From Bacteroidia bacterium (GTDB lineage Bacteria; Bacteroidota; Bacteroidia; UKL13-3): DNA of 64,000 bases. A model generated the notes under the pieces. It worked only from the letters and a program-made list of their open reading frames with translations, ran no database searches and was not told the DNA's origin. The stretch is from the NCBI GenBank assembly GCA_019695215.1, contig JAIBAK010000007.1, forward strand, positions 1,149 to 65,148, in the 5' to 3' direction. Shown piece after piece: positions 2,692 through 22,000 of this stretch (position 1 is the first letter of the stretch; each line of letters opens with the position of its first letter). A program made the position numbers and the translations under genes.

Positions 2692-2726
2692 AAAAAAGCC
2701 CGGTGAGATTCATCGGGCTTTTTTAA
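2692..2726. terminator. Bidirectional rho-independent terminator shared by eno (+) and the convergent minus-strand operon
   Basis: AAAAAAGCCCGGTGA-GAT-TCATCGGGCTTTTTT has a 9-bp stem with an A6 run before it and a T6 run after it. It overlaps the stop codon of the minus-strand gene ending at 2723. Confidence 0.75.
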
Positions 2727-3406
2727 TCCTTTATTGGGATTAAACGGATATTGTCTATATCAATAAGAATAAAGCTTTTCACGGTCCCTTTCATCTTCTT
2801 AAATGTAATAATATCACCGTTAGGAATACCGCCAATATATATGAAATCTTGCCGTTCGTTAAGGAAAAATGTGATTGTATCTGTAAGTGTCACCCATTTT
2901 CTTTTTGGGAAAAAAGAGCTGTCGGGCGTATAAAGTGGATGATGAGTGCCACATGAGTTTTCCTTCCCAAATTCATTTGGATTTTTTAACAATCCATAAT
3001 TCAGTAGCCGATAGTTTAATTTATTGGTAGCGTACTTTGAATCCTCAGAAGTTCGCACATCTATTTTCAAAACAAAACGCCTTGGCCCAGAATTCCCCCA
3101 ATTTGTATCCAGAGGAAGTACTATATCCCCTTTTAAGTTTGCATCAGCATGTTTGTATAAACTGTTTACATGCCATAAATAGATAACCGAATAAACTTCC
3201 CCGTCCGAAGCTGTATCAGATACTGGTTTACCTTTACTTTCTTTGACAAAACCAGCAGGCCCGTTTATATAATAAATGGGCCCATTAACAGAATACATCT
3301 CCGCATTTTCCACGTAAGTTTCAAAGCTCCCATTCTTCACAATATTCTGCGATGTTACACTAAGACTGATCATGCAACAAAGAAAAACTGCTAAGGTTTT
3401 TACCAT
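2723..3406 (-). CDS. Hypothetical secreted protein with an N-terminal signal peptide. It is the last gene of cassette 1 and a candidate immunity protein for the upstream effector-like gene.
   Basis: MVKTLAVFLCCMISLSVTSQ is a signal peptide. Its start overlaps the end of the upstream gene by 7 nt. No recognisable catalytic motif. Confidence 0.55.
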   Translation of the reverse strand: MVKTLAVFLCCMISLSVTSQNIVKNGSFETYVENAEMYSVNGPIYYINGPAGFVKESKGKPVSDTASDGEVYSVIYLWHVNSLYKHADANLKGDIVLPLDTNWGNSGPRRFVLKIDVRTSEDSKYATNKLNYRLLNYGLLKNPNEFGKENSCGTHHPLYTPDSSFFPKRKWVTLTDTITFFLNERQDFIYIGGIPNGDIITFKKMKGTVKSFILIDIDNIRLIPIKD

Positions 3407-3969
3407 CTTGTATTAGTAATTATTCTACCAATTTGTTTAAATCTAGTGTTAGAAGTGCCACTACAAAAAATCTGAATCTCCACCTTTGATACATTATCAA
3501 CAATAAACTCATTACTCTGTTCAACCTCAGATTGTGTAATATTAGTAATTGTAAAGCCCCCTGCCCATCCGCTTCTTGGTTTCTGTGTTATTATACCACG
3601 AGAAAACTGTGATCTAACATTATCAGCCCGATTCTGTGATAAATTAACTCGCCTTAATAAATCTGCTAGCCCTTCCGGTGTTTCATAATCAATAGTTGCA
3701 GAAAGAACCATTTTACTCGTTATATAAACAGCATCTTCACTAAGGATAAGGGAATTGAGCGTGTTCAGACCTGCCAGTTGAGTCTCATTAAGAATAGCAC
3801 TCCAATTTGGAAAATTTATAGACGCTATTGGCAAGGGGTCAAGGGGTCTTGTCAAAAAATTTCCATCCCTATTTTCTGGTGCTATCCCAAAATCAGCCTT
3901 AAAGCTAGAGAGCCAATCTTCTGATAACCTTCCCCCTTTTGCCCACGGATTTTTAAATTCGAATGCCAT
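3400..3969 (-). CDS. Effector-like protein E1. It has the conserved N-terminus MAFEFKNPWAKGG shared with E2 and E3, followed by a unique C-terminal region of unknown function.
   Basis: Its N-terminal 12 aa and the junction with the upstream gene (stop, 2 nt, ATG) are conserved with the genes at 8268-8831 and 9797-10324. No signal peptide. Confidence 0.6.
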   Translation of the reverse strand: MAFEFKNPWAKGGRLSEDWLSSFKADFGIAPENRDGNFLTRPLDPLPIASINFPNWSAILNETQLAGLNTLNSLILSEDAVYITSKMVLSATIDYETPEGLADLLRRVNLSQNRADNVRSQFSRGIITQKPRSGWAGGFTITNITQSEVEQSNEFIVDNVSKVEIQIFCSGTSNTRFKQIGRIITNTRW

Positions 3970-3971
3970 AA

Positions 3972-5654
3972 CTATGCGGGATTTGAGGTTGGATTACAAT
4001 TACACCCGCTTTGAGGCACATCGCAACAATCAGTGAATACCTTTTTGTATAAGGTGGCCTTTTCAGTTGCATCGGTAAGCCCTTCTATTATATCAATAGC
4101 TTGTTGTTTAGCTACGTTTTCAAGATTAGCCTGCACAACAGCTGCATCCTGTAACTTGAGGTTGAAGCAATCCAAAGCCTCGCCCTGTCCCAGCAAAGCA
4201 TCAACAATTACTGAGTCAGTAGGTAACACGCGGCTTTCTACACTTTTTATTATACCATTAACTGTAATCCCCTCAGCCGTCATAGAAAGTCCTGTGTTTT
4301 TACGGAAGTAATCTTCAGTAAATTTCACACTACCTGTAGCGGAATCGTAAACATTCTCCGTTCTTTTTTCATAAAAGGTTTGCCTGGTTCCGGTGTAATC
4401 ATATACACTGTAATATTGGTCAACTATATCCTTAAAAACGTTGTCGGCATCTGTGGTGTTATTGAAAATACTTTTAAGTAAGGCTAATAATCCATCAACT
4501 TTAACTACTTGTTTAGTTTCTTCATACCCATTGGTATAAACAAATGAAACATCATCCAGATAAGTTATTGTAATGAGTTCCTGATTGAGTTGACGAAAAA
4601 CAAAATTGAGTACCCGACTTTTGTTTATATTTTCCAATATCCTAACAATACTGGTTTCGGTAGAGGTGGTTTCTGAGGTAGAGGTCTCTGTATTGATATC
4701 AAGTTTTCGGGATACCACTGATTTCTGAACCTGCTTTGATATTGCATTTGCCAATAATTTAATGTTCTCAGCTCGCAGCCCATTCATTGTAACTCCATTG
4801 GAGGAGCTACTCGAAAAGGAAGCTGCTCCTTTGCCACCGAACAATGGTATATTTAAGCCTGAACCGCTCTGTGAAGCCATATTATATCCCCCTGACTCTG
4901 TATGACTTTGAAGGCTGTCAATCTGAAGCATCTTTTCAAGCTCCTGGGTACTATCATTTGTTAAAGAATCAATAACATTCTGATAGTCTTTTTTGCTTTG
5001 GGTTGTTTGCTTATAACTCTTAATACTGATGGTGGTTTTCTCGCCCGGCAGCAATGTAAAAGTCTTAACAGTTTCTCCCGCACCGTAATCTCCAAGGTAA
5101 GTATTTACTCGATAATGCTCTATTACTGTAAGTCTTGGAACTGCACTAGCTGGTTGTTGCCTGAATTCAATTTTTTGATTGCCCATAATATCCACAACTG
5201 TTACAGGCATTCCATAAAGAGATTGAACTGCAATGCTACTTACAGCTTGTCCGGCAATAGTATAATCAGCAACCGGACTTGAAGTAGGGGCTGATTCAAA
5301 ACCCACCAAACTTGCAAGTGAATACTGTGGCGCAGCACTTACTGTTGGAGTTTCCTCTTCTGAATTTACATTTACAATATTGGGTGTGCCTACAGCTATA
5401 AAGTTATTTGCCATACGCGCGGTAATAGTTGAAGCATCCAGTCCGGCAACTATATCATAGTAGTTACCGCTAGGGGGCGAATCAAAACCTGCACCAGTTT
5501 TAAAATAGCTGCTGTTCACATCTAAGGGAATGTAAGCATTGGCAACAAACCCATTTGTTTGCGGAATGTTGTAATCAAGTTTGGGTGTTGAACCTGTTCC
5601 CCAATCGGTCATTGGATCTTTGTTGATGCAGCTTGATGGTGTTGTTTCTGGCAT
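3972..5654 (-). CDS. Hypothetical 560-aa protein. No signal peptide, Ser/Thr-rich, with a Cys-rich C-terminus ...LYKKVFTDCCDVPQSGCNCNPTSNPA.
   Basis: Long ORF with coding-like composition. Its last ~33 codons are duplicated in the 51-aa fusion ORFs at 8834-8989 and 10327-10482. Confidence 0.6.
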   Translation of the reverse strand: MPETTPSSCINKDPMTDWGTGSTPKLDYNIPQTNGFVANAYIPLDVNSSYFKTGAGFDSPPSGNYYDIVAGLDASTITARMANNFIAVGTPNIVNVNSEEETPTVSAAPQYSLASLVGFESAPTSSPVADYTIAGQAVSSIAVQSLYGMPVTVVDIMGNQKIEFRQQPASAVPRLTVIEHYRVNTYLGDYGAGETVKTFTLLPGEKTTISIKSYKQTTQSKKDYQNVIDSLTNDSTQELEKMLQIDSLQSHTESGGYNMASQSGSGLNIPLFGGKGAASFSSSSSNGVTMNGLRAENIKLLANAISKQVQKSVVSRKLDINTETSTSETTSTETSIVRILENINKSRVLNFVFRQLNQELITITYLDDVSFVYTNGYEETKQVVKVDGLLALLKSIFNNTTDADNVFKDIVDQYYSVYDYTGTRQTFYEKRTENVYDSATGSVKFTEDYFRKNTGLSMTAEGITVNGIIKSVESRVLPTDSVIVDALLGQGEALDCFNLKLQDAAVVQANLENVAKQQAIDIIEGLTDATEKATLYKKVFTDCCDVPQSGCNCNPTSNPA

Positions 5655-5692: not shown

Positions 5693-6682
5693 TTATGAAC
5701 TATAGTTATGAATAACTTTATGATTAAACACATAGCCGTTGCGAGTGGTAACGGTTACGTAATACAATCCGGAGCTTGAAATAAAAGGGAGTGCCAGCAT
5801 ATTTCTATTATCAATATGGGAAGATTGAACAACCCGTCCCATTAAATCTGTGATAACTATTTCAGTAATTGCATCCTGTTCACACAAATATTTTATTTCA
5901 AGATTCTCCATTACCGGGTTAATAATTTCAGGTATGACAGAACTTATTGGTGAAGAAACTCCTGTCGGGTTAGCTTTACCTGCCAAAATATTTATCTCCG
6001 CCTGTGTTAATATCCTGCTATAAAATCTGGCTTCGTCAAGTTTACCGTCATACCAATGCCCCATATTTGTATTAGTTAAACTCTGTGGTGTCGCATCGGG
6101 CACTTTCCCCGCGAACGAAACAGTCTTCACTTTTGCAGCGTCTATATACAAATCAATTACGGAAGTACTTCTGTTCACGTTTATTGATAGATGATGCCAC
6201 TGATTATCTAAAAGGGCTGTATTGGTATAGAGCAATTCCGCCTGGTCCGACAGAAAACTTGCTCTAATAATAAAATCAAATTGCCCCTTTACAAACTCAT
6301 TTGCAATTAAACTGACTCCCCTGTCATAAGGAGCATCAGTAGCATATAAAAAATCAATTTCATTTTGGTCATTTGTCATAAACCAGAATGAAATATTAAA
6401 ACTTGTAGAAGTACCAAAGGAGAGTGCTCCGTTAGAAACATTCATTTTTATTGCTGCATCTGATGAAAACAGCAATGCCTGATTTAGGTTGCTTTTTCTA
6501 TCGTAGGTGAAGTTAACTGTCCCCCCGCTGGCTAAAAATTTTGTAACCGTTGCCCCATTACCGGAAGCATCAGAAAGACTATTTGTAAACGGCAAATACA
6601 TAACGAGGCCCTGAGTGAGATCCTGACAGAAAGCATATCCTGAAATTGTCATTAAGATGATGACCAAATAAACTCTTTTCAT
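5693..6682 (-). CDS. Secreted LamG / concanavalin-A-like lectin domain protein with a C-terminal sorting domain for type IX secretion (T9SS)
   Basis: Signal peptide MKRVYLVIILMTISGYAFCQ. The LamG-like core includes DNQWHHLSINVNRSTSVIDLYIDAAKVKTV and GKLDEARFYSRILTQAEI. The C-terminal ~70 aa (...GLYYVTVTTRNGYVFNHKVIHN) match the T9SS CTD pattern. Confidence 0.7.
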   Translation of the reverse strand: MKRVYLVIILMTISGYAFCQDLTQGLVMYLPFTNSLSDASGNGATVTKFLASGGTVNFTYDRKSNLNQALLFSSDAAIKMNVSNGALSFGTSTSFNISFWFMTNDQNEIDFLYATDAPYDRGVSLIANEFVKGQFDFIIRASFLSDQAELLYTNTALLDNQWHHLSINVNRSTSVIDLYIDAAKVKTVSFAGKVPDATPQSLTNTNMGHWYDGKLDEARFYSRILTQAEINILAGKANPTGVSSPISSVIPEIINPVMENLEIKYLCEQDAITEIVITDLMGRVVQSSHIDNRNMLALPFISSSGLYYVTVTTRNGYVFNHKVIHNYSS

Positions 6683-6783
6683 AAGTACAAACAGTTAATA
6701 TTTTACCCAAAGTTGAAAATAATATTTCACATATGCAACTTTTTTCTCAAAAATTGTTAACTAAGATATACGGCCATTACGAT
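6626..6783 (-). promoter_or_regulatory. Conserved upstream block, copy 1. It covers the putative promoter/operator, the 5'UTR and the first ~19 codons. The 18-nt core AAAATYGTYAACTAAGAT lies at 6749-6767 (plus strand).
   Basis: Near-identical to 8933-9090 and 10426-10563. The core motif recurs at 11148-11165. Each copy sits 62-85 nt upstream of a minus-strand ATG. Confidence 0.55.
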
Positions 6784-6848: not shown

Positions 6849-7520
6849 CTACTCCTTCCATGCTTGCTGAACTTCCTTCAACGCTAATTCCATTAACAAA
6901 AAAATTCGGTTAACAGTCCCCCTTAATTTTTGCAGTTCATCAGGCAGCTCTTTTACGGGATGTGGTCCATCAAAATAAAAATACCAAAAACTTTTTATCT
7001 CCTTATCACTACGCTTAGCTAATAATTCCAGGAAAACACTAGTATCAGATTTTAATTTCTCCTGCATTGCGTGCTGAAAATAACCCACACCATCAGCATA
7101 CCACCTGCCATTGATACTTATATCAATCATTCGGTTGTAATATTGATTTTTGGGTATTACAGTTAATTTAAAAAATGCTTCTACATATAAATAAGCTTTG
7201 TTATATAAGGGGCTGTTGAAATCAGAAACCGGCTCTCCTAAAGGGTCTTTGTCTGAGTATCCAAATAAATGGTTGAACAAGTTAAACGTATTTGGAAAAG
7301 CAGCAAAATATTCTTGTTGATACTTAATTGTATATGGTGAGGAAGATACTTTTTGATATGCCCTTTTTAATTGCTCCGCTTTTTTTATTCCGTTTAACTG
7401 AGTATCCGCAACATTTGCATTTGCAATATTTCGGCAAGTTATATTCGCTGTACAACTTGAAAACAATTGACTAAACAATACTATAATAAATAATTTCATA
7501 TCATCGAATGGGTAGGTCAA
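6849..7520 (-). CDS. Hypothetical lipoprotein or secreted protein and candidate immunity protein. The real start is probably the internal Met at 7499 (MKLFIIVLFSQLFSSCTA).
   Basis: Signal peptide with a lipobox-like SSC. It lies between effector-like gene E2 and the upstream block of cassette 1. Confidence 0.5.
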   Translation of the reverse strand: MTYPFDDMKLFIIVLFSQLFSSCTANITCRNIANANVADTQLNGIKKAEQLKRAYQKVSSSPYTIKYQQEYFAAFPNTFNLFNHLFGYSDKDPLGEPVSDFNSPLYNKAYLYVEAFFKLTVIPKNQYYNRMIDISINGRWYADGVGYFQHAMQEKLKSDTSVFLELLAKRSDKEIKSFWYFYFDGPHPVKELPDELQKLRGTVNRIFLLMELALKEVQQAWKE

Positions 7521-7557: not shown

Positions 7558-8256
7558 CTATTGAGGTTCTACTTTGAACCACCATTTAGATTTAGGATGC
7601 CCGCTTGTAATCTTAAAAACTAATTTGCTTACTCCCTTCAAAGGTATAGTTACAGTTTGTATACTGTTAGTATTAGTCATTTCTGTTTTATAAAGTTGTA
7701 ACCCATTTTTATCTTCTACTATCAGCTGGTCTGATTCATTGTAAAAATGATAACTCAACCTTATCGCTGTTACTTTGCCAGTGAGTTGCAGTTCTTTTAC
7801 GCTGTTTCCTTCGCCAAGATAGGAATCCTCTTTATTAGCATCTGGAATTCTTTCATACTTTTCAACGATACACTCTCCATAATTAAAACAGATTTTTAGT
7901 AATTTACCTGTACCTCCTTTTATATACAGGGTAAGTTCCGCACTGGAATCGTGAAAGGTGACGTTCGTAGTAAACTTCCTGTTCTTTAAGGTTATTTTTT
8001 TATCCTTGGGATCATATATCCAATTCCCTTGCTCTATTGTTGGAATTTGGGTAGTAACACTGTAACAATCATTAAGAATTTGGTAATTGCCATCAGGATT
8101 AAATACTAACATATCAGGACACTCAACTGCTTGCTTTTTACTATTCTCAACACCCTTATATTGCCATCTACCGATTATTTTATGAGAAGCATTTTGAGCA
8201 TAGGCAATACCGCTTATCAACAATGCAATCAGAATAAAATTTACACCTGTTTTCAT
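7558..8256 (-). CDS. Hypothetical secreted protein with a signal peptide. It lies immediately downstream of the M23 effector and is a candidate immunity protein.
   Basis: MKTGVNFILIALLISGIAYAQ is a signal peptide. It is co-oriented with E2 at an 11-nt spacing. Confidence 0.55.
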   Translation of the reverse strand: MKTGVNFILIALLISGIAYAQNASHKIIGRWQYKGVENSKKQAVECPDMLVFNPDGNYQILNDCYSVTTQIPTIEQGNWIYDPKDKKITLKNRKFTTNVTFHDSSAELTLYIKGGTGKLLKICFNYGECIVEKYERIPDANKEDSYLGEGNSVKELQLTGKVTAIRLSYHFYNESDQLIVEDKNGLQLYKTEMTNTNSIQTVTIPLKGVSKLVFKITSGHPKSKWWFKVEPQ

Positions 8257-8267
8257 ACTTATATCGA

Positions 8268-8831
8268 TTAGGGTCCAAAGAAATATGGTGTTGGGTCAAC
8301 CCATTTGCCTCCTATCATTACCTGAACATGAATATGTGGTGTTATATCCTTGGGATAACCCAAATCTCCTAAATTAGCGGCCGTTCCTATTAATGTTTTT
8401 CCCCCAATTACAGTGTATGGACTCCATGCATTGATTTCACTAGGAATATTTACATATAAAATTCTCACTTTCTCAATCTCAATTGCAGAATCTGAAGGTG
8501 TAATATCTATCATTGGTTTTCCAGATGATGAGCCAATATAATTTACCGCTTTCCCAGTTACTGGAGATACTAAATCTTGCCCAACTATGGTTAAAATATC
8601 TATACCCATATGTTTACGGGCACCTCCGCTACGAGGAGCACCAAAGTGACCATTCCCATATGCATCCTGCCCCCTCAAAGCACCTCCACTTGGGTTGAAT
8701 AATAAGCTTACATCCGTGATATTCCTTTTAATAGGTATAACTGCCCCCTCTAGTGCCGTACCATTTATTCCAAACCATTTATCAAACTCTCTGTTACCTT
8801 TTCCCCAAGGGTTTTTAAATTTCAATGCCAT
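8268..8831 (-). CDS. Effector-like protein E2. Conserved N-terminus MALKFKNPWGKGNREFDKWFGINGTALEG... fused to a C-terminal M23 (LytM/lysostaphin-type) metallopeptidase domain.
   Basis: H-x-x-x-D motif (RKHMGIDIL) and an HxH motif in TPHIHVQV, aligned with the M23 consensus GPHLHFEV, at the spacing typical of peptidase M23. N-terminal 36 aa almost identical to E3. No signal peptide. Confidence 0.7.
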   Translation of the reverse strand: MALKFKNPWGKGNREFDKWFGINGTALEGAVIPIKRNITDVSLLFNPSGGALRGQDAYGNGHFGAPRSGGARKHMGIDILTIVGQDLVSPVTGKAVNYIGSSSGKPMIDITPSDSAIEIEKVRILYVNIPSEINAWSPYTVIGGKTLIGTAANLGDLGYPKDITPHIHVQVMIGGKWVDPTPYFFGP

Positions 8832-8833
8832 AT

Positions 8834-8989
8834 TTATTCGGGATTTGAGGTTGGATTACAATTACACCAGCTTTGAGGAACATCGCAACAATAAGTAAAC
8901 CCCTTTTTGTATAAGGTGGTGGCATGATTAGTACAGAAAAGAGAACCCGAAATTGTAATTAAAAGCATGACCAAATAAATTCTTTTCAT
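8834..8989 (-). CDS. Unannotated 51-aa fusion ORF: MKRIYLVMLLITISGSLFCTNHATTLYKKGFTYCCDVPQSWCNCNPTSNPE. It joins the signal peptide of the LamG gene to the Cys-rich tail of the 560-aa gene.
   Basis: Read on the minus strand. ATG at 8989, TAA at 8834-8836, then AT, then the E2 ATG. Residues 1-19 match the LamG N-terminus and residues 24-51 match the 560-aa C-terminus. Its first 81 nt are identical to the ORF at 10327-10482. Confidence 0.6.
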   Translation of the reverse strand: MKRIYLVMLLITISGSLFCTNHATTLYKKGFTYCCDVPQSWCNCNPTSNPE

Positions 8990-9090
8990 AAGCACAAACA
9001 GTTAATATTCTATCCAAAGTTGAAAATAATATTTCACATAAGCAACTTTTTTATCAAAAATTGTCAACTAAGGTATACGGCCATTACGAT
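8933..9090 (-). promoter_or_regulatory. Conserved upstream block, copy 2, with the core motif at 9056-9074
   Basis: Aligned with copies 1 and 3. It sits upstream of the fusion ORF and E2. Confidence 0.55.
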
Positions 9091-9168: not shown

Positions 9169-9768
9169 TTACCAAGTGTAATTTTTTATATCAAACCTTT
9201 CAAGAAAGGTTATTTTCCATCTTCCTTTTTCCTTTTTCGCTTTAACAAGGTAATCAAAATCGCCTCCCCATGTCCAATAATAGGTTGCAAAGTCATTATC
9301 CAATTTAATATTCTTAATCATTAATCTACTCCATATATCCGAAGGGTAATCCTGACAGTTACACCATTCGTCAGCATCATTTCCGTAAGGAGGTAATTCT
9401 CCTTTATAGTATTTAACCTGGTTATCATTTAGTTCTTTGTCTAGGTACAACGCAATTTTCATGTAGTTATCTATAAATTCCTGAGTAAAGAAATTTGTTT
9501 GGGATAATTCTTCCATTCTGGATTTCTGAACAAGCCAATCAATCCGCTCATAAATGCTGTCATTATCACTTGTAAGAGGGAAATCTCTATTGGTGTCAAC
9601 CTCATGCCACTTCAACAAATTCTTTGTTAAAGCCAAAAGTTCTAAACTATCAGTAGATAACTGTATATAGGCATGGCTATTTGTACCTGTGTCTTTCTGA
9701 GTATGTACACAACTAAAACTAATTACAAGTATTGAAACTGCTGATACCAGGCCATTAAATAATTTCAT
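9169..9768 (-). CDS. Hypothetical lipoprotein and candidate immunity protein for E3
   Basis: MKLFNGLVSAVSILVISFSCVHTQ is a signal peptide with a lipobox Cys. It lies directly downstream of E3. Confidence 0.55.
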   Translation of the reverse strand: MKLFNGLVSAVSILVISFSCVHTQKDTGTNSHAYIQLSTDSLELLALTKNLLKWHEVDTNRDFPLTSDNDSIYERIDWLVQKSRMEELSQTNFFTQEFIDNYMKIALYLDKELNDNQVKYYKGELPPYGNDADEWCNCQDYPSDIWSRLMIKNIKLDNDFATYYWTWGGDFDYLVKAKKEKGRWKITFLERFDIKNYTW

Positions 9769-9796: not shown

Positions 9797-10324
9797 TCAT
9801 GAGTTATTGTCAGTCCAACGGAATATTGCGTACATAGAATTTCTATACCCACTTCCGGGAAATTCGTTTTTCTCCTTAAAATCACTTAACCATTGATTAC
9901 CGTTGTACATATCAATATGACCATACTGGCTACCCCCGGGATATGGTTGAAACACCCTTATATCTCCTTTAATAGGTGAATAATTTGTACTACTTAAAGT
10001 ATTGAATCCCCAGCCCTGCAAAAAAGGTCCATAATCTTTTGCGGATACTGGATGAGGGTTTGTATTTATACCGCCCGCTTCTAAAGCTAATCTGACATAT
10101 TTAGCACATGCGTGCTGAGAAACTACTTTAGCATTATTGTCTAACCAGTTTACAGCTTTGTCAATATTGAAACTCGATTGGAATCCACCCACATTAACAT
10201 TACCACCATCCGAAATATCTCTTTTAATAGGTATAACTGACCCCTCCAATGCCGTACCATTTATTCCAAACCATTTATCAAACTCTCTATTACCTTTTCC
10301 CCAAGGATTTTTAAAGGAAGCCAT
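9797..10324 (-). CDS. Effector-like protein E3. Conserved N-terminus MASFKNPWGKGNREFDKWFGINGTALEG... with a C-terminal putative CHAP/NlpC-P60-like Cys-His hydrolase domain.
   Basis: A candidate catalytic Cys (SQHACAKYV) and a candidate His (GDIRVFQ...GHIDMY) sit at the spacing seen in CHAP amidases. The domain call is tentative. Confidence 0.55.
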   Translation of the reverse strand: MASFKNPWGKGNREFDKWFGINGTALEGSVIPIKRDISDGGNVNVGGFQSSFNIDKAVNWLDNNAKVVSQHACAKYVRLALEAGGINTNPHPVSAKDYGPFLQGWGFNTLSSTNYSPIKGDIRVFQPYPGGSQYGHIDMYNGNQWLSDFKEKNEFPGSGYRNSMYAIFRWTDNNS

Positions 10325-10326
10325 AA

Positions 10327-10482
10327 CTACAGAGAATTTGAGCTGGGATTACAATTACACCCACTTTGCGGCACATCGCAACAATCAGTAAACACCTTTT
10401 TGTATAAGGTGGTGGCATGATTAGTACAGAAAAGAGAACCCGAAATTGTAATTAAAAGCATGACCAAATAAATTCTTTTCAT
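10327..10482 (-). CDS. Unannotated 51-aa fusion ORF, copy 2: MKRIYLVMLLITISGSLFCTNHATTLYKKVFTDCCDVPQSGCNCNPSSNSL
   Basis: Same architecture as 8834-8989. The stop TAG at 10327-10329 is followed by 2 nt and then the E3 ATG. Confidence 0.6.
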   Translation of the reverse strand: MKRIYLVMLLITISGSLFCTNHATTLYKKVFTDCCDVPQSGCNCNPSSNSL

Positions 10483-10563
10483 ATGCTAAACTTTAAGATT
10501 ACAGTCAAAGTTGAGAATAATATTTCACATTCGCAACTCTTTTTAAAATCGTCAACTAAGATG
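10426..10563 (-). promoter_or_regulatory. Conserved upstream block, copy 3, with the core motif at 10545-10562
   Basis: Aligned with copies 1 and 2. Confidence 0.5.
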
Positions 10564-10612: not shown

Positions 10613-11086
10613 TTATTTATTAGGTGGTAGAATAAAATAATTAGTTAAAAAGATTCTGAAGCATTCAATTTGAGCACCCACTGCTCCAATATCCGCATCA
10701 GTATTATAAAAAGAAGGATTTTGCACCACACTACAAAACGACTCATAAAGCGACCTGTGAGAATTGGTATTATATTGTTGTTCAACTTGAGCAAAAACAG
10801 AGTCAAGTGTATTTTTTTTAATCAACCTGACTAACGGGGTGCCCTTGTTATAAAGAGAAAGATATAAGTCAAAGTACTCCTCATGAATAGTATCTCCATT
10901 AGTTGAACTTTTGTGATAAACTTTGAACAAATCTTTAAATACATTGAACGACTTAGTATCCCTTTCTAATTTTATTGCAACTCTGGGAAGTAGCGTATCA
11001 TTCAAGCAAACGAGTCTTTCCTGCGGATAGCAGATAGCTATATGGTGCAAACTGCCAAAAAGGAAGATGAAAAATAAATGCTTCAT
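10613..11086 (-). CDS. Hypothetical secreted protein with a signal peptide, preceded by a fourth copy of the AAAATCGTCAACTAAGAT motif. Possibly an orphan immunity-like gene.
   Basis: MKHLFFIFLFGSLHHIAICYPQ is a signal peptide. The motif at 11148-11165 lies 62 nt upstream of the ATG. Confidence 0.5.
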   Translation of the reverse strand: MKHLFFIFLFGSLHHIAICYPQERLVCLNDTLLPRVAIKLERDTKSFNVFKDLFKVYHKSSTNGDTIHEEYFDLYLSLYNKGTPLVRLIKKNTLDSVFAQVEQQYNTNSHRSLYESFCSVVQNPSFYNTDADIGAVGAQIECFRIFLTNYFILPPNK

Positions 11087-11222
11087 TTTAATCCCATAAA
11101 GTGAATAATACTAATGCAAGCTACTAAAAGAGCAGCGCATTTCATATAAAATCGTCAACTAAGATAGACGCCCTGTTTATAACCCAATGCCTGAGTTAAA
11201 GCAATAACCTTAATTTTGCAAA

Positions 11223-14876: not shown

Positions 14877-16094
14877 TTAAAAAATAAAACCGCACAAAAT
14901 AGTAATGGCCACCACAATGGGCGGAGACAATCGGAAAAAATACAATACGGCCGAGGTAAGTGCCACAATAATCAGGTTAAGGGAACTAAATCCAAGTGGT
15001 TCAAAAAGCAAATAAGCGGATGCCACAACCAGTCCGGCCGATGAGGCATTGATGCCCGAAATAGCCTTTTGAATGCGCGGATGCCCCTTGAACTGATCCC
15101 AGATAGGATAAAGAAAAAAGATGAGTAAAATGCCCGGCAAAAAAATACCAATGCTCCCTACTACCGAGCCCAGTAAAATACCCGATGTTCCCCAGTGGCT
15201 CATGCTCATACCGCAGGCAAAAGACGAAAAGCTAAACACCGGCCCCGGAATAGATTGCAATAATCCAAGTCCGGTAATAAAGTCCTGTGCACTCATGTAC
15301 TCCCTAAAGTTTACAAACTGTTCGTAAATCATTGGAATAAGCACATTGCCTCCGCCAAATACAATGCTGCCGTAGCGATACGTGTTTTCAAATAACAGAA
15401 ACGGCCTTGCAGCTATTTGTCCGTAGTTTGATTTAACGTATGCTGCCACTGCTGCCGATATCAGAAAAATAGAAACAAAGAGAATAAAATTATCCCAACG
15501 CACATTGGTAATCCGGTAATAACCTTCTAATTTTTTCTTATCGGTAAAATTGGAAACAATGCCGCCAAAAATTAAAATGATTGGGAAAACCAGCGGAGTG
15601 CGCATAAAAATAGCAGCCTGTGCGGCAATTATAAGCAACAGCAACTCGGTAATGGTTTTGGCAAACAGCTGACCGATGCTTACAGCGGCATACACCATAA
15701 ACCCGATGGCCATGGGCTGAATATACTTGAGGAAACTTAAATTGATTGACGAATGCCCGTAGGAGCTTAATAAAACGGCAAGTAAAAACATGATAACGCA
15801 GGCCGGCAAAATCCAAACACCCAGAGTAAGAAAAGCCAGCATTGGACCTCCTAATTTAAATCCGATAGCCGTAACAGTTTGGGTAGATGTGGGACCGGGC
15901 AACATCTGGCAAAAGGAGTTGAGTTCTTTCAAATCCTCCTCGGTGATATAATGTTTTTTGGTTACTAACCGTTTTAAAAACTGCACAAAATGTACCTGAG
16001 GCCCGCCAAAGGCAGTGAGCGATAAAACAAATACGTCCTTCAGAAAAACAAGCTGCTTCAGCTTTCTGATGCGTATATTTGTATGCCGGGTCAA
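14877..16094 (-). CDS. chrA: Chromate transporter (ChrA family)
   Basis: LKDVFVLSLTAFGGPQVHF ... LPGPTSTQ and the second repeat FGGGNVLIP ... LLQSIPGPVFSF give the duplicated ChrA signature. Multi-TM. Confidence 0.85.
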   Translation of the reverse strand: MTRHTNIRIRKLKQLVFLKDVFVLSLTAFGGPQVHFVQFLKRLVTKKHYITEEDLKELNSFCQMLPGPTSTQTVTAIGFKLGGPMLAFLTLGVWILPACVIMFLLAVLLSSYGHSSINLSFLKYIQPMAIGFMVYAAVSIGQLFAKTITELLLLIIAAQAAIFMRTPLVFPIILIFGGIVSNFTDKKKLEGYYRITNVRWDNFILFVSIFLISAAVAAYVKSNYGQIAARPFLLFENTYRYGSIVFGGGNVLIPMIYEQFVNFREYMSAQDFITGLGLLQSIPGPVFSFSSFACGMSMSHWGTSGILLGSVVGSIGIFLPGILLIFFLYPIWDQFKGHPRIQKAISGINASSAGLVVASAYLLFEPLGFSSLNLIIVALTSAVLYFFRLSPPIVVAITILCGFIF

Positions 16095-16101
16095 CTGAAA
16101 A

Positions 16102-16734
16102 ATGAATTTAAAATTCCGTTACGAAGGTACATTACCACCGATAAAATTATTAATAAAAGGCAAAATGCCAAAAAATATCATTTTGTTAGCCCTGTTACTT
16201 AGTGCCGGGTGGATGAGTTGCAAAAGTCCTGCGCAAAAATTTGCCACCGAAACCACTCAATTAGACAGCATTCGCAAGCAATTAAACACCATGAAAGTGT
16301 GGTTTATGGTAGATGAACGAAAAGTGAGTAAACGGTTTGACCACCTGCAGCAACAGGACAGCCTTATTCAATTAACCAACCTGGCCCAAAGGCTGCCAGA
16401 AGATTTAGGACTGGCAATTGAAGAATTCAGAGCCATCCCTGAAATCTATAAAAACTACCTGAACCTTTTTAAACAGCAGCAACAGCAACTCGATTCGCTT
16501 GTGCAAAGCACGGATAGCTTACAAAACCTGTTGTACAGCGAAACCATTGGACGAAGAAAATTCAGGGAATTGTTTGGGGCGCATCAGTTAGCTGTAAACC
16601 TCCTGCAACAGCAAGTTGAAGCCACCGTAAAAAAAACCATAGAGGTAGAACCCACGTATAAGCGCATTCAGCCTCATATCGACTCGCTGGAGCGCTTTTC
16701 GGTTACGCCTGGGCAGTTGGCCCCCCGAAAGTAA
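16102..16734 (+). CDS. Hypothetical lipoprotein or secreted coiled-coil protein, Gln-rich
   Basis: Signal peptide with a Cys (LLSAGWMSC), then Q-rich heptad-like sequence. Confidence 0.45.
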   Translation: MNLKFRYEGTLPPIKLLIKGKMPKNIILLALLLSAGWMSCKSPAQKFATETTQLDSIRKQLNTMKVWFMVDERKVSKRFDHLQQQDSLIQLTNLAQRLPEDLGLAIEEFRAIPEIYKNYLNLFKQQQQQLDSLVQSTDSLQNLLYSETIGRRKFRELFGAHQLAVNLLQQQVEATVKKTIEVEPTYKRIQPHIDSLERFSVTPGQLAPRK

Positions 16735-17017
16735 GCGGAAGCGGAATATCCTCCTGCACCTTAATGGTACCAAAATTCTCCTCAAACTTGATGATATTAT
16801 CACTTAGGGCCATTAACAGGCGCTTGGCATGCATGGGGGTTAATAAAACCCTTGATTTAACTTTTGCCTTCGGAACTCCCGGCATAATGCGCACAAAGTC
16901 TATTACGAACTCGCTGTTTGAGTGAGTAATTATAGCCAGGTTAGAATAAGTTCCCTCGGCTATCTCTTCCGATAACTCAATATTGAGCTGATTCTGATTT
17001 TCGTTGTTGTTATCCAT
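16703..17017 (-). CDS. DUF3467-like small protein
   Basis: AEGTYSNLAIITHSNSEFVIDFVRIMPG and KSRVLLTPMHAKRLLMALSDNI is a conserved small-protein pattern. Confidence 0.5.
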   Translation of the reverse strand: MDNNNENQNQLNIELSEEIAEGTYSNLAIITHSNSEFVIDFVRIMPGVPKAKVKSRVLLTPMHAKRLLMALSDNIIKFEENFGTIKVQEDIPLPLTFGGPTAQA

Positions 17018-17100
17018 AATACAAAAGTAGCCTTTTTTTAGTTTGGTTACATATTCATGATAACGCGAGCATCATTGTTCGGAATAAGTATTAAACTGGC

Positions 17101-17157
17101 ATCTTGCCTGCATTGGTAAGCAGGATGCTTACGAATAGTAAACACGAGGTCGGGGCC
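17101..17157 (+). repeat. Left copy of a ~57-nt direct repeat flanking the ATPase/partner module. It contains a perfect 7-bp hairpin, GTAAGCA-GGA-TGCTTAC.
   Basis: ATCTTGCCTGCATTGGTAAGCAGGATGCTTACGAATAGTAAACACGAGGTCGGGGCC shares about 80% identity with 18882-18937. Confidence 0.8.
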
Positions 17158-17223
17158 CCGTGTTATCATATTTCCTTACTTGCGAAGGATCCAAATACAT
17201 ACAGTGATGAGTATTTGATAGGT

Positions 17224-17715
17224 TTATGGAAATTCTTTGATGAGTTGATCTATGATTTGCTTCAATTCCTTTATTTCCGAATCAATTTGCAAAAGTGAAT
17301 TTAGATATGCTTTAAGATGAAAATTTACTGAGGCATCTTGGCGTTTGCAAACATCTTTGTATGCAGAATAATCGTTAGGCAAACCAAATTCTCCAGTACT
17401 AATGTTATGAATGAGCCCTTCATCGTATGTCCATTTTTCAAAAATTGGATGAATAATTACAAACCGTTTTGATTGACCCATTCTTCGAATTTCAAGTGAC
17501 CCAATTCGCTTGTAGAACTGGTAATCCTCTTTTAATCTGTTTGGAGCTTGTTTATCTTTATCAATTAGAGCTATCCCAATTGAGTTATTATATCCAGGTG
17601 AATCAAGCGCTTTCAAAATATTTCCTACCCCTTCCTTGTGGTTTGCCTTTCTAAACCCTAGGACAGTAGTCAATGCAGTATTAGCATAACATTCTGGTAA
17701 TATCCTTAATTCCAT
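17224..17715 (-). CDS. Small partner protein of the ATPase, possibly a minimal TOPRIM-like fold
   Basis: Its start overlaps the ATPase stop (ATGA). An early Glu (LRILPECYA) is followed later by a hydrophobic strand and DxD (IGIALIDKDK), the order seen in TOPRIM/OLD-C/RloB-like partners. Confidence 0.5.
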   Translation of the reverse strand: MELRILPECYANTALTTVLGFRKANHKEGVGNILKALDSPGYNNSIGIALIDKDKQAPNRLKEDYQFYKRIGSLEIRRMGQSKRFVIIHPIFEKWTYDEGLIHNISTGEFGLPNDYSAYKDVCKRQDASVNFHLKAYLNSLLQIDSEIKELKQIIDQLIKEFP

Positions 17716-18791
17716 TAGTCAACAAATGCTTCATAGTTAATAAAAACGTCAGTCCCATAATTAAGCATTTCACCAATTTGCTTTTTAGTTAATTCCTTTA
17801 CTTCAGTTTGATAGTCTTTATACTTAGCAACAAATACTGCGCAATCTTTATAATCACAATGTTCAACCAAAGTACTTAATAGATAAGGACTATGCGTTGC
17901 AATAAAAAACTGATTAGATTCTGAATCAATCATTTCTCTAGCAATCCTATTAATATAAGGCGGGAAGCTATGGGCTTCCGGTTCCTCAAAAAGTAAAACA
18001 GAATCCTTATTAGATTTTATTGCGGACAGATAAAAAATTATTCTTCGCAAAGTATCAGCAATAAATTTGTATTCATATTTGTAAGATATTCCATCAACTC
18101 TTTTCTGTATTTCAAAAATATTTTCCTTTTGATCAATAAGGAATTCAAGCCCATACTCATCGAAAAACGAAGCAATCTCAGATCTTAGCTTTTTACTCTT
18201 AGTAAGTATCGTTAACAAATTATCTCCATCTGGTGTATTTAAAAAACTCGAGAAACTGTTCTCAAATGATTTTAGACGCTCATTAAATACATACTTTTTT
18301 ATTACCGTTTTTATTGTATGCGTATCCCTTGTTAAATTCAGGCTTCCATCAAAGGCAAGTTGTGAACCAGTAAATGGATAATTAACTATATCTAATCCAT
18401 TCTTACTTTCATTATATTGAGATAAAAATTTATCCCCTGATTTCTTGATATAGTTTTCATATAACAGCTCCATAAAATCAATATCCCCGGTGTACCAATC
18501 ATAACTATTAGAATTTGCCCTTTGACCAATAAAAGTTGCAATCAAATTTGTAAATATCTTTAGTGGTTTTGAGTCGTCATTATCATAGAACAATTGAAAA
18601 GGCTTATCAAACCTAATTATATCCTTTATTTGCCCATGACGTGAAAGTAAAGAAAGCGCTTCCAAGATATTACTTTTACCAACATTTGGCTTCCCAACAA
18701 ATACGTTTATTCGCTTGCATTTAATATCGATCTGCTTGACCGATTTGAAGTTTTCGATCTTAAGATAATGAATGTGCTTTTGAGCTACCAT
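17715..18791 (-). CDS. AAA_21/ABC-type ATPase (OLD/PARIS AriA/Septu PtuA-like N-terminal ATPase family)
   Basis: Walker A GKPNVGKSNILEAL, Walker B/D-loop LLFEEPEAHSFP, H-loop IATHSPYLL. Confidence 0.75.
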   Translation of the reverse strand: MVAQKHIHYLKIENFKSVKQIDIKCKRINVFVGKPNVGKSNILEALSLLSRHGQIKDIIRFDKPFQLFYDNDDSKPLKIFTNLIATFIGQRANSNSYDWYTGDIDFMELLYENYIKKSGDKFLSQYNESKNGLDIVNYPFTGSQLAFDGSLNLTRDTHTIKTVIKKYVFNERLKSFENSFSSFLNTPDGDNLLTILTKSKKLRSEIASFFDEYGLEFLIDQKENIFEIQKRVDGISYKYEYKFIADTLRRIIFYLSAIKSNKDSVLLFEEPEAHSFPPYINRIAREMIDSESNQFFIATHSPYLLSTLVEHCDYKDCAVFVAKYKDYQTEVKELTKKQIGEMLNYGTDVFINYEAFVD

Positions 18792-19072: not shown

Positions 19073-22000
19073 TTAGTTGGCTTTGGCTGTTTCCATGGCT
19101 TCCTGTTTAGAGGCCATGAGTGATTCGTACTCTTCGCGCGAACCTACCACTAATTTATCGTAGGCGCGGTTACCGGTACCGGCAGGAATGAGGTGACCAA
19201 CGATCACATTTTCCTTCAGACCTAATAACTCATCTACTTTACCATTGATGGCGGCTTCGTTAAGCACCTTGGTAGTTTCCTGGAACGAGGCAGCACTCAT
19301 AAAGCTGTGTGTACCCAACGATGCACGGGTAATACCCTGTATCATGGCACCGGCTGTGGCAGGAACCGCATCGCGCACTTCAACCAGTTTCTGGTCTTTG
19401 CGTTTCAGCATCGAGTTCTCGTCACGCAGTTTGCGCACACTCACTATTTGTCCTGCTTTCAGGTTTTGTGAATCCCCTGCATCCGTCACTACTTTCTTAT
19501 CGTAAATCCAGTCGTTTTCTTCGATAAAGTCGAATTTATCGGCTGCTTCACCTTCAAGGAAACGGGTATCTCCCGGATCTTCGATTTCTACCTTCTGCAT
19601 CATTTGGCGCACAATCACCTCAATATGTTTATCGCTGATTTTTACACCCTGCAAACGGTAAACTTCCTGAATTCCGTTGGTAATATACCGCTGTACAGAA
19701 AGCGGACCTTCAATACGCAAAATATCCTGAGGACTGATAGCACCATCAGATAATGGAGTACCTGCTTTTACGAAATCGTTTTCCTGAACAAGAATGTGTT
19801 TTGAAAGCGAAACAAGGTATTTTTTCACCTGACCATCGCGTGATTCAATAATGATTTCACGATTACCACGCTTGATACCACCGAATGAAACTACCCCGTC
19901 AATCTCGGTAACCACAGCAGGGTTAGACGGATTACGTGCTTCGAACAATTCGGTAACGCGGGGTAAACCACCGGTAATGTCTCGTGTTTTTCCAATTGTT
20001 CTCGGAATCTTCACCAGAATTTGTCCGGCAACCACGGCCTCTTTATCCTCGGCAGCAAGGTGAGCTCCTACAGGAAGGTTGTACTCTTTAAGCACCTCCC
20101 CTTTTTTATCAACGATTTGGATAGAAGCGATGCGTGTTTTATCACGACTCTCAATAATTACTTTTTCCTTGTGGCCGGTTTGTTCGTCACTCTCCTCGCG
20201 GAAGGTGATGCTCTCAATAATATTGGAGAACTGAACTTTACCTGCAAATTCAGAAAGAATCACCGCATTGTACGGATCCCATGAACAAAGCACATCGCCT
20301 TTGGTCACTTTTTGTCCGTCTTTCACCATCAGGTGTGCTCCGTATGGAATATTCACGGTGATGATGACTGCACGTGTTTTCTCGTCAAGAATTTTCACTT
20401 CACCCTGACGTCCCAATACAATTTGTATTTCACCGTCCTCCGATTTATAGGCAACACTTCGCACTTCTTCAAACTCCAGAATACCGCCAAACTTAGCAGT
20501 GAGTTGCGACTCGGCAGCAATATTGGATGCAGTACCACCCACGTGGAAGGTACGGAGTGTAAGCTGTGTACCCGGCTCACCAATTGACTGCGCTGCTATT
20601 ACACCCACGGCTTCTCCATCCTGCACCATGCGGCCGGTAGAGAGGTTTCGTCCGTAACATTTAGCGCAGATACCAAATTTGGTTTCGCAGGTTAATGCCG
20701 AACGAATTTCCATTGATTCAATAGCTGAATTTTCAATTTTATCAGCAATGTCTTCGGTAATTTCTTCGCCCGATTTAACAAGTAATTCTCCGGTTATCGG
20801 ATCGTACGTATCGTGCAGCGAAACTCTTCCTAATACACGCTCATATAAACTTTCAACTACTTCTTCATTATCTTTCAGGGCGGAGATTGGAATACCGCGA
20901 AGGGTTCCGCAATCTACTTCCGAAACAACAACGTCCTGAGCCACGTCATGCAACCTACGGGTAAGGTAACCCGCATCTGCCGTTTTCAAAGCTGTATCCG
21001 CAAGACCCTTACGGGCACCGTGCGTAGAGATAAAATACTCGAGTACCGAAAGCCCTTCTTTAAAGTTGGAAAGAATCGGATTCTCGATAATCTCACCGGT
21101 ACCACCGCTCAGGTTTTTCTGAGGCTTGGCCATCAATCCCCTCATACCTCCCAGCTGACGAATCTGTTCTTTAGAACCACGCGCCCCTGAGTCAAGCATC
21201 ATGTAAATAGGATTGAACCCTTGTCTGTCGGAAGATATTTGCTTTAACAGTGTATCTGAAATACGCGAGTTAACACGGGTCCAGATATCAATTACCTGAT
21301 TGTAGCGTTCGTTGTTGGTGATGAAACCATTGTTGTAGTTACTCCATATTTCTTCTACTTCCTGTTGTGCTTCGCCAATGAATTTTAATTTTTCATCAGG
21401 CACACGCACATCTGAAAGGTTGAATGAAAGACCTCCTTTAAAGGCATAGTGGTAACCTAATTCTTTAATATCATCAAGGAACCTGGCTGTAACAGCCGTA
21501 CCAAACCGTTTCACGATTCCGCCAATAATATCGCGCAGGTTTTTCTTGGTTAACGTTTCGTTAATGAAACCATGTCCTTTTGGAACAACCTGATTAAATA
21601 TTACGCGGCCTACAGTGGTTTCGAAAAGTTTGTTTTCAATTTCACCTTTCTCATTCAGCACATCAACTTTTACTTTGATGAATGCATGTAAAGCAGCTCT
21701 GCGCTCGTTGAAAGCAATAATTACTTCCTCGGGCGAATAGAAACGCAACCCTTCACCTAAAACTTTTTCTGTTTCGGTGCTCTTACGTCCTTTGGTTATG
21801 TAATACAAACCAAGCACCATGTCCTGCGAAGGAACAGTGATAGGAGTACCATTAGCCGGGTTGAGTACGTTGTGCGGTGCCAGCATCAGCATTTGAGCTT
21901 CAAGAATAGCCGCGTTACCCAGCGGTACGTGAACCGCCATCTGGTCACCGTCAAAGTCAGCGTTAAAACCTGTACACACCAAAGGGTGCAACTGAATGGC

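Follow-up and report, generated by a model that had tools for sequence, protein, structure and literature searches.

The window analysed here is a 64-kb stretch of a Bacteroidota chromosome (contig JAIBAK010000007.1), with genes for carbamoyl-phosphate synthase, enolase, rpoB/rpoC, ribosomal proteins, EF-Tu, GroEL and the T9SS (type IX secretion system) proteins PorV and PorU. Between enolase (1294-2676) and 11.6 kb lies an island of low guanine-cytosine (GC) content (0.35 vs ca 0.42), in which every gene is on the minus strand. In the present work, we examine one gene of this island, E2, which encodes a short N-terminal tag followed by a domain with the motifs of M23 peptidases. We consider it together with the gene directly downstream (I2), with two further tagged genes (E1 and E3) and their own downstream genes (I1 and I3), and with an unannotated 560-residue protein called the partner below. 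Judged by N-terminal hydrophobicity, E1, E2 and E3 have no signal peptide, while I1, I2 and I3 each have one. We will argue that E2 and I2 are well supported as a putative polymorphic toxin/immunity pair, and that the predicted active site of E2 is not the canonical one. The features are collected in Table 1.

Table 1. Features of the island around E2 (positions in the window; aa, amino acids; nt, nucleotides; pLDDT, predicted local distance difference test; ORF, open reading frame).
Feature	Positions	Strand	Remarks
Signal-peptide protein	10613-11086	-	157 aa
E1	9797-10324	-	175 aa; NPW tag and C-terminal endolysin/amidase-like domain; sister orphan cassette
I1, immunity candidate for E1	9169-9768	-	199 aa; lipoprotein-type signal
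E2, putative effector with N-terminal tag and LECT2-type M23 domain	8268-8831	-	187 aa
E2 tag, residues 1-36 (MALKFKNPWGKGNREFDKWFGINGTALEGAVIPIKR)	8724-8831	-	pLDDT <55, disordered in the model
E2 LECT2-type M23 (LytM-fold) putative toxin domain, residues 44-187	8271-8702	-	profile, AlphaFold2, Foldseek; boundary agrees with Rhs-tip homologues
E2 HxxxD (H74, D78), predicted Zn ligands	8598-8612	-	family conservation
E2 HxH (H166 catalytic-type; H168 predicted Zn ligand)	8328-8336	-	family conservation
E2 Asn128, site of the canonical YxHL-strand catalytic His (LytM H260 / EnpA H78)	8448-8450	-	alignment
I2, cognate immunity candidate	7558-8256	-	232 aa; signal peptide MKTGVNFILIALLISGIAYA/QN; start 11 nt past the E2 stop
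Lipoprotein gene after I2	6849-7520	-	223 aa; outside the conserved E2 cassette
LamG + T9SS C-terminal domain protein	5693-6682	-	329 aa
Partner ("carrier") protein	3972-5654	-	560 aa; unannotated family, no match in any library
E3, NPW-tagged effector candidate in the primary slot	3400-3969	-	189 aa; 2 nt past the partner stop codon; unknown C-terminal domain
I3, immunity candidate for E3	2723-3406	-	227 aa; signal peptide; overlaps the E3 stop
Chimeric 51-codon mini-ORF upstream of E2	8834-8989	-	same arrangement at 10327-10482, ahead of E1
Repeated non-coding element (51 nt + 34 nt)	9002-9082	.	repeat families, 79-94% identity

A preliminary description of this DNA, made from the letters alone, had assigned to E2 an M23 domain of the LytM/lysostaphin type on the basis of two motifs, and these are located where it placed them: RKHMGIDIL provides H74-x3-D78, and TPHIHVQV provides H166-x-H168, 92 residues further on. 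The window has 100 open stretches that reach 100 aa or more, and of these only E2 shows the combined pattern H...D(70-120)H.H. The alignment to Pfam PF01551 that had been proposed as a check does not by itself carry the assignment. E2 scores below the gathering cut-off (E 0.038, 14.6 bits, cut-off 28.7), although the alignment spans positions 2-96 of the 96 in the model; the homology is instead supported by relatives, profile and fold. Relatives at 42-46% identity clear the cut-off, with 35.4 and 31.9 bits. It is important to point out that weak PF01551 matches alone are not diagnostic. RpoC (19073-23377, minus strand), for example, has a sub-threshold M23 match as well (E 3.5e-4, residues 1150-1209), which we take to be probably a shared barrel-sandwich hybrid motif and no peptidase.

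With E2 as the query, phmmer finds a single family among the PDB sequences, namely LECT2 (E 0.008), and the alignment includes the stretch upstream of HxxxD. The homologue search with E2 returned few proteins, while a profile built from four C-terminal domains returned 107, most of which have precomputed PF01551 matches. When a 93-sequence family profile is compared with the PDB, the match to LECT2 is at 6e-29, and a further 36 distinct M23/LytM sequences follow at 5e-13 to 5e-3; these include StM23 (5e-13), LytM (1e-10), ShyA (5e-10) and lysostaphin (6e-9), and also LytU, Csd3 and zoocin A (down to 1e-6). The AlphaFold2 model of E2 has a pLDDT of 85 overall and of more than 90 for residues 41-187, with residues 1-40 disordered. 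A Foldseek search of the PDB with this model gives 42 matches at E ≤0.001, and all of them are M23/LytM proteins; LECT2 (5b0h) is at the top, with a template modelling (TM) score of 0.76 on the target. Since the Pfam scores of the relatives, the family profile, the AlphaFold2 model and the Foldseek matches agree, we consider the M23 (LytM) fold of residues 44-187, in its LECT2 subtype, to be established at the level of profile comparison and predicted structure.

The subtype is recognized by an extension motif before HxGxD (R-x2-D-x2-G-x-G-x2-G-A-x-R), by an F/L-Y-V/I-x-P strand that replaces YxHL, and by LECT2 being the nearest solved relative. Residues R53, D56, G59, G61, G64, A65 and R67 of the extension are invariant or nearly so in the subfamily. 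When the profile is aligned to LECT2, each of them except G64 finds its counterpart, and A65 and R67 do so also with E2 alone. E2 thus shares with LECT2 the R..D..G.G..A.R extension, the strand without the catalytic histidine and the HxH motif, in addition to the top match in both sequence and fold. It differs in lacking, over the aligned stretch, all of the cysteines of LECT2, and in being bacterial, tagged, immunity-paired and devoid of a signal peptide, whereas LECT2 is an animal protein that is secreted, serves in signalling and is regarded as non-catalytic. LytM, lysostaphin and ShyA have the same fold as E2, with HxxxD and HxH at similar spacing, but E2 has no YxHL histidine, no SH3b/LysM targeting domain and no Sec signal, carries the LECT2-type extension and lies under the Pfam cut-off. 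Of the original assignment, the M23 fold is therefore retained, while the LytM/lysostaphin type is replaced by the LECT2 type.

Some LECT2-type M23 homologues (in the range P0142-P0166, one of them given as Phenylobacterium by its source) have a signal peptide or a transmembrane segment together with a VWEGADIDGDGxxDFANPTG module, and about half of them have precomputed matches to PF26482. The LECT2 subtype therefore occurs also in ordinary Sec-exported proteins.

We now turn our attention to the active site. In active M23 enzymes, zinc is bound by the histidine and aspartate of HxxxD and by the second histidine of HxH, and the catalytic residues are the first HxH histidine and a histidine on the YxHL strand (PMC9662197). 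In EnpA, for instance, the ligands are His29, Asp33 and His111, and the catalytic residues are His78 and His109. Counted on a 109-sequence family alignment, H74 is kept in 108 members, D78 in all 109, and H166 and H168 in 107. The column of the YxHL histidine is occupied by Asn128 in E2; in 107 of the 109 members it holds D, N, E, K, G, R, S or Q, mostly with a proline after it, and only two members retain Y-x-H-L. E2 has in total four histidines (62, 74, 166 and 168), none of them between residues 75 and 165. By the canonical M23 definition, the predicted site is incomplete. The earlier statement that both halves of the M23 active site are present holds for HxxxD and HxH, but the YxHL-strand histidine is missing and activity is thus not guaranteed; as the domain is without one catalytic histidine of the active M23 enzymes, we can only infer a peptidase activity for E2. 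EnpA was also considered as a natural M23 enzyme without a catalytic histidine, but it was dropped, as H109A is an engineered variant and the histidine is present in the wild-type enzyme.

The genomic contexts of the E2 domain point to its use as a toxin. In protein P0003, an Rhs-associated core (TIGR03696, 5e-12) ends in DPxG and is followed by a linker and a domain 67% identical to that of E2. In a metagenome scan, the domain was found at further Rhs tips, in L090/L091 (85%), in L092 (78%) and in L099 (a 2009-aa open frame, 41%), and also, in L095, on a protein rich in glycine and, in L097 and L098, on coiled-coil proteins. The same toxin-type domain is thus carried by Rhs, glycine-rich, coiled-coil and NPW-tagged scaffolds, as is typical of polymorphic toxins. 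In 8 out of 8 independent contexts, the next ORF is a homologue of I2 (E 1e-115 to 2e-11), which starts 6-14 nt past the stop and bears a signal or lipoprotein sequence. The identities of toxin and immunity protein fall together (85%/66%, 78%/50%, 46%/34% and 41-44%/28-31%), and orphan copies of I2 are present in L001, at 15461-16216 and 16762-17535. A co-varying immunity gene directly downstream, accompanied by orphan copies of it, is what a polymorphic cassette contains.

The island itself varies between strains. The same island is found in L088 and L089, with a 99% identical E2 followed by I2, the LamG gene, the partner, E3, I3 and enolase, but without the lipoprotein gene that follows I2 in the window and without the entire E1 cassette. 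At the same chromosomal site in a related metagenome-assembled genome (L008, partner 88% identical), there are another tagged effector and another immunity gene. The effector/immunity content next to enolase varies from strain to strain (L008, L088 and L089). On the basis of these comparisons, the assignment of E2/I2 as a polymorphic toxin/immunity pair, with the immunity protein predicted to act in the periplasm, is well supported. The use at Rhs tips, the co-varying downstream gene, the orphan I2 copies and the strain-variable low-GC island are also the reasons for reading E2 as a delivered toxin. They support the view, already put forward in the preliminary description, that E2 would be a cell-wall-directed effector and not a housekeeping autolysin.

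The preliminary description had further noted that E2 is without a signal peptide and is followed by two proteins that have one. Both observations are confirmed: there is no hydrophobic N-terminal segment in E2, and both downstream products have N-terminal signal or lipoprotein-type sequences. The proposal that both would provide periplasmic immunity can be kept for I2, the conserved companion in all eight contexts, but not for the lipoprotein gene. The latter is absent from L088/L089, where the LamG gene comes directly after I2, and it has no homologue in 87 related loci. As it is missing in these otherwise identical islands, I2 is left as the only cognate partner of E2, and the lipoprotein gene may be another orphan immunity gene. 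Its likely start is M8, MKLFIIVLFSQLFSSC, and it stands as an insertion after I2 and before the LamG gene.

The N-terminal part of E2 connects it to other genes. The first 36 residues of E2 and E1 are 92% identical, in line with the shared N-terminus described earlier, and a core MAxxFKNPWxKGxR..W is found also in E3. In E2 the motif is at residues 5-9. We define NPW-tagged cargo by an N-terminal M-x(1-6)-[FL]-x-N-P-W in a gene that stands beside a partner gene or a 3' remnant of it, and E2 belongs to this class, with a partner-tail remnant ending 2 nt before its ATG, as at the primary slot. In other genomes and metagenomes, the partner is followed by a protein of 150-450 aa that starts with MFKNPWSKGG, KFVNPWAKGG, DFTNPWGQGG, GSGNPWDTGG and the like, and after it comes a small protein with a hydrophobic N-terminus. 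Partner-adjacent genes bearing the tag occur in dozens of Bacteroidota genomes. An NPW ORF starts at most 360 nt past the stop for 34 of 81 partner genes, compared to 43 of 1631 other ORFs, a background that still contains the tagged genes themselves. At the level of gene order, this shows a genetic link between the NPW tag and the partner family, from which we infer that tag and partner may bind physically.

Over 41 tagged proteins, the only invariant columns are M1, N7, P8 and W9, the remainder being unrelated. The Pfam domains found in them are Tae4 (8 proteins), Peptidase_M15 (1) and Glucosaminidase (1), and nothing else. As 30 of the 41 are without a recognisable domain, the pattern that all of the cargo consists of peptidoglycan hydrolases rests on a minority. 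An N-terminal hydrophobic signal is present in 32 of 38 next-gene products, compared to 22% of background ORFs. In the window, the C-terminal domain of E1 has a match to phrog_38472, a family of phage endolysins (E 1.9e-14), and a weak one to Tae4, and E1 would accordingly be a second peptidoglycan-hydrolase cargo with the same tag; the E2 domain has a weak PHROG metallo-endopeptidase match. The signal-peptide protein upstream of E1 is homologous to the gene that comes after NPW-tagged proteins elsewhere (L006, L027 and L078; the tagged protein is a Tae4 in L006, the one checked), and it looks like an orphan immunity gene, since there is no tagged effector upstream of it here.

NPW is not the only short N-terminus that follows the partner. 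The alternatives are xFWKxxW and NIWGEEVLDSK (NIWGEEVLDSKE...), at loci L012, L015, L017, L066 and L087 and at L032, L046, L048 and L054. Tag type does not co-cluster with partner phylogeny, the alternative N-termini being interspersed in the partner tree without forming clades.

The partner, with counterparts at loci L004-L087, has more than 1000 homologues, all unannotated, and its family comprises 1782 clusters at 50% identity. The members are mainly from Bacteroidota, and also from Alphaproteobacteria, Gammaproteobacteria and Acidobacteriota. The protein is soluble and acidic, has neither signal peptide nor transmembrane helix, and shows conserved cysteine motifs at both ends and a conserved, cysteine-rich C-terminus. 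GEALDC[YF]N, SR[VT]LNFVFR and the C-terminal CC..PQSGC are near-invariant. It has no match in Pfam, NCBIfam, PHROG, PADLOC or the PDB sequences, and no significant fold match. The AlphaFold2 model is of moderate confidence (pLDDT 72), with very long beta-strands and a variable loop rich in S, T and G, and its resemblance to aerolysin-type pore formers in the fold search is sub-threshold only. A test for an amphipathic hairpin in the loop 248-292 is weakly positive (median z 1.5; global maximum in the loop in 15 of 89, compared to ca 8% expected). A role of the partner as a pore-forming translocator is at this stage purely a hypothesis.

The partner family is absent from IMG/VR (2.9 million viral contigs) and from defence-system models. 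Clustering of the ORFs within 10 kb of 83 partner loci gives no conserved neighbour besides the effector and immunity genes. In Proteobacteria and Acidobacteriota, a conserved protein of ca 350 aa without Pfam match is encoded upstream of the partner (10 loci), in place of the downstream polymorphic effectors (examples are L039 2954-4060, L051 8933-9976, L056 8936-9958 and L072 8901-9971). The two examples that were read, L051 and L056, carry P-x-NPW near the N-terminus, and this protein and the partner may represent an ancestral two-gene arrangement. The idea that the partner is the N-terminal half of a fused toxin was rejected, the C-terminal extensions of three long homologues looking non-toxin by eye (beta-rich, or with a DUF1508-like repeat). 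In Myroides (L077, 7514-16569), the module is located between a ParA-like traA/DUF3408 and traG (DUF3875 + TraG P-loop), and the ORF layout at the module is similar in L075 and L078. The L077 module is probably cargo of an integrative and conjugative element, and hence mobile. No literature description and no database family were found for this partner/tag module.

How E2 came to its present position is suggested by two near-identical mini-ORFs (8834-8989 and 10327-10482, minus strand), in which the LamG gene's signal peptide is joined to the 26 final codons of the partner gene. Their tail reads ATTLYKK-FT-CCDVPQS-CNCNP-SN (ATTLYKKGFTYCCDVPQSWCNCNPTSNPE, then stop), i.e. the 3' end of the partner. 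Each stops 2 nt before the ATG of E2 or E1, the same spacing as at the primary slot. At the sequence level, E1 and E2 are thereby shown to be orphan cassettes that retain a 3' remnant of the partner. From the mini-ORFs and from the effector difference in L008, it follows that the partner 3' end and the tag are the constant region available for exchange, while the toxin domain and the immunity gene are the variable one. The product of a mini-ORF would be a small, cysteine-rich exported peptide. Upstream of the genes there are also copies of a non-coding element, at 6695-6775 (LamG gene), 9002-9082 (E2), 10493-10543 (E1) and 11140-11173 (the 157-aa signal-peptide protein), which is a candidate for a promoter or regulatory site shared within the island.

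Taken together, we consider the best explanation, and a reasonably probable one, to be a polymorphic toxin/immunity cassette with partner-linked delivery and zinc-peptidase action in the periplasm. In this mechanism, E2 would be made in the cytoplasm without a signal peptide and be recruited by its NPW tag to the partner, with which or by which it would be exported. On reaching the periplasm of a competitor, it would cut peptide bonds of the peptidoglycan as a Zn-dependent endopeptidase, using a zinc site that operates without the usual third histidine, i.e. with a non-canonical catalytic set. I2, exported to the periplasm of the producer and its kin, would bind and block E2 and so protect them. 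Recombination between the constant region and the main slot could then bring E1 or E2 in for E3. The periplasm is proposed as the target compartment because of the localisation of the immunity proteins and the nature of the sister cargos. The catalysis, the tag binding and the export route are predictions. For the route, we would guess at one that depends on the partner and requires no more than passage of the outer membrane, because nearly all of the family's cargo and immunity proteins are periplasmic; the main alternative is that the proteins are cargo or adaptor of a type VI secretion system (T6SS).

Several observations weigh against this explanation. The YxHL-strand catalytic histidine is absent from E2 and from almost the whole subfamily, and vertebrate LECT2, the sole characterised subfamily member, is described as non-catalytic (PMC9662197). 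On its own, E2 stays under the Pfam threshold, as given above, and 30 of the 41 tagged proteins have no recognisable domain. The fold and function of the partner are without assignment from libraries or structure searches. The only secretion apparatus encoded in the 64-kb window is that of the T9SS (PorV and PorU), which requires signal peptides and C-terminal domains, both absent from E2. Finally, E2 is an orphan that does not have a complete partner gene immediately upstream, and its expression may therefore be poor.

In the T6SS scenario, E2, E1 and E3 would be cargo of this system, and loading of the NPW enzymes onto an Hcp, VgrG or PAAR protein encoded elsewhere in the genome would be the task of the 560-aa protein, as a secreted adaptor or co-effector. 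The absence of signal peptides from effector and partner would fit, as would the presence of Tae4, a T6SS amidase-effector family, on eight tagged relatives and of the E2 domain on Rhs proteins, which are often T6SS cargo. M23 effectors with immunity proteins are moreover known from T6SSs, namely Tse4/Tpe of A. baumannii (PMC6833914) and the WHIX effectors (PMC12135965). On the other hand, no Hcp, VgrG, PAAR or Tss gene is found by Pfam in the window or in the flanks of two partner loci, and the clustering at the 83 partner loci yields nothing conserved but effector and immunity genes. There is also no MIX, FIX, RIX, WHIX or PAAR domain detected in E2 or the tagged proteins, and T6SS sets normally include cytoplasmic toxins, whereas here cargo and immunity proteins are nearly all periplasmic. 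We therefore regard this scenario as unlikely, although it is the one to be taken most seriously. Another option considered is that the E2 domain has an M23 fold without catalytic activity, comparable to LECT2, EnvC and NlpD, and is toxic through binding to a periplasmic target or to peptidoglycan, e.g. by sequestering or mis-activating a cell-wall enzyme. The replacement of the canonical histidine by N128, in a column that is unconserved in the subfamily, is what such a fold would show, and LECT2 has been described as a degenerate M23 fold without the catalytic histidine (PMC9662197). A non-enzymatic cell-wall-directed effector, BteO, is described for Bacteroides (PMC12541434). However, the Zn ligands and the first HxH histidine are retained in at least 107 of the 109 members, the invariant polar residues R53, D56 and R67 could complete the site, and the sister cargos belong to bona fide hydrolase families, which makes this option quite improbable.

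Two further scenarios concern the role of the gene as such. Orphan toxin modules of Rhs and contact-dependent inhibition (CDI) loci are often not expressed, and E2, which has upstream of it only the 26-codon remnant instead of a full partner gene, could likewise be a silent cassette, a reservoir for recombination that is neither expressed nor delivered in this strain. We find this distinctly improbable, considering that both the ORF and the immunity gene are intact, with 99% conservation in other samples, that a separate copy of the LamG gene's upstream non-coding element accompanies each orphan, and that translational coupling could persist, as the mini-ORF stops 2 nt before the ATG. The possibility that E2 is a housekeeping autolysin, a LytM-type division factor or a phage lysin appears very remote. 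Although the M23 fold is common among autolysins and phage lysins, and the weak PHROG match points the same way, E2 is without a signal peptide and is located in a low-GC, strain-variable island, its homologues are found at Rhs tips, and it has a dedicated co-varying immunity gene. In addition, the neighbourhood contains no phage genes, and the partner family is missing from the 2.9 million viral contigs.

Returning to the preferred explanation, a toxin/immunity cassette with partner-linked delivery, it is useful to compare it with known systems. Like the M23 effectors of T6SSs (A. baumannii Tse4/Tpe; WHIX effectors, e.g. Awe1), E2 would be an M23-type toxin acting between bacteria, with its immunity gene beside it. 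The T6SS effectors are large proteins of several domains, linked to VgrG or WHIX and to T6SS loci, while E2 has 187 aa, a 36-residue tag, a different partner and no T6SS marker nearby. With Rhs and CdiA loci, the island has in common that a variable C-terminal toxin and an immunity gene come after a constant region, and that there are orphans in which a piece of the constant gene lying upstream is kept; the E2-type toxin/immunity pair even occurs on true Rhs proteins. The difference is that the constant part is split here into a separate 560-aa protein and a short toxin-fused tag, and that the orphan fragment is the 3' end of the separate gene. The Tae4 effectors (PF14113) are sister cargos, eight of them NPW-tagged, and a homologue of their immunity protein is present in the window (10613-11086), but they have an NlpC/P60-type amidase fold and chemistry and not those of an M23 metallopeptidase.

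As M23 domains are known in T6SS effectors, an M23 interbacterial weapon is not new in kind. What is new is a toxin domain of the LECT2 subtype, whose only studied member counts as inactive. The repeated use at Rhs tips together with a co-evolving immunity protein argues that the subtype is biochemically active, and the E2 domain offers a tractable bacterial model for the capabilities of the LECT2 fold. New are also the 36-residue tag, which genetically marks the cargo of a very large unannotated family, and the almost purely periplasmic character of the family's cargo and immunity proteins, which suggests a delivery logic unlike that of the T6SS. The genomic context of E2 may thus be more novel than the finding on E2 itself.

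A more far-reaching proposal, which we put forward only tentatively and consider rather doubtful, is that the partner family and the NPW tag constitute an undescribed, T6SS-independent system that takes peptidoglycan hydrolases into the periplasm of competitors. The partner would then possibly be a secreted, beta-rich, aerolysin-like translocator of the target's outer membrane (an antibacterial "binary toxin"), and the LECT2-type domain would be active with a two-histidine site. If this were the case, vertebrate LECT2 would descend from a bacterial toxin domain, and a partner that is a new delivery device would mean a new class of interbacterial antagonism and a source of lytic enzymes that cross the outer membrane.

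Outside the island, at 17224-18791 (minus strand), the gene for an AAA_15/AAA_21 ATPase (358 aa) overlaps by 1 base a 163-aa ORF without Pfam match, a layout that recalls two-gene anti-phage systems.

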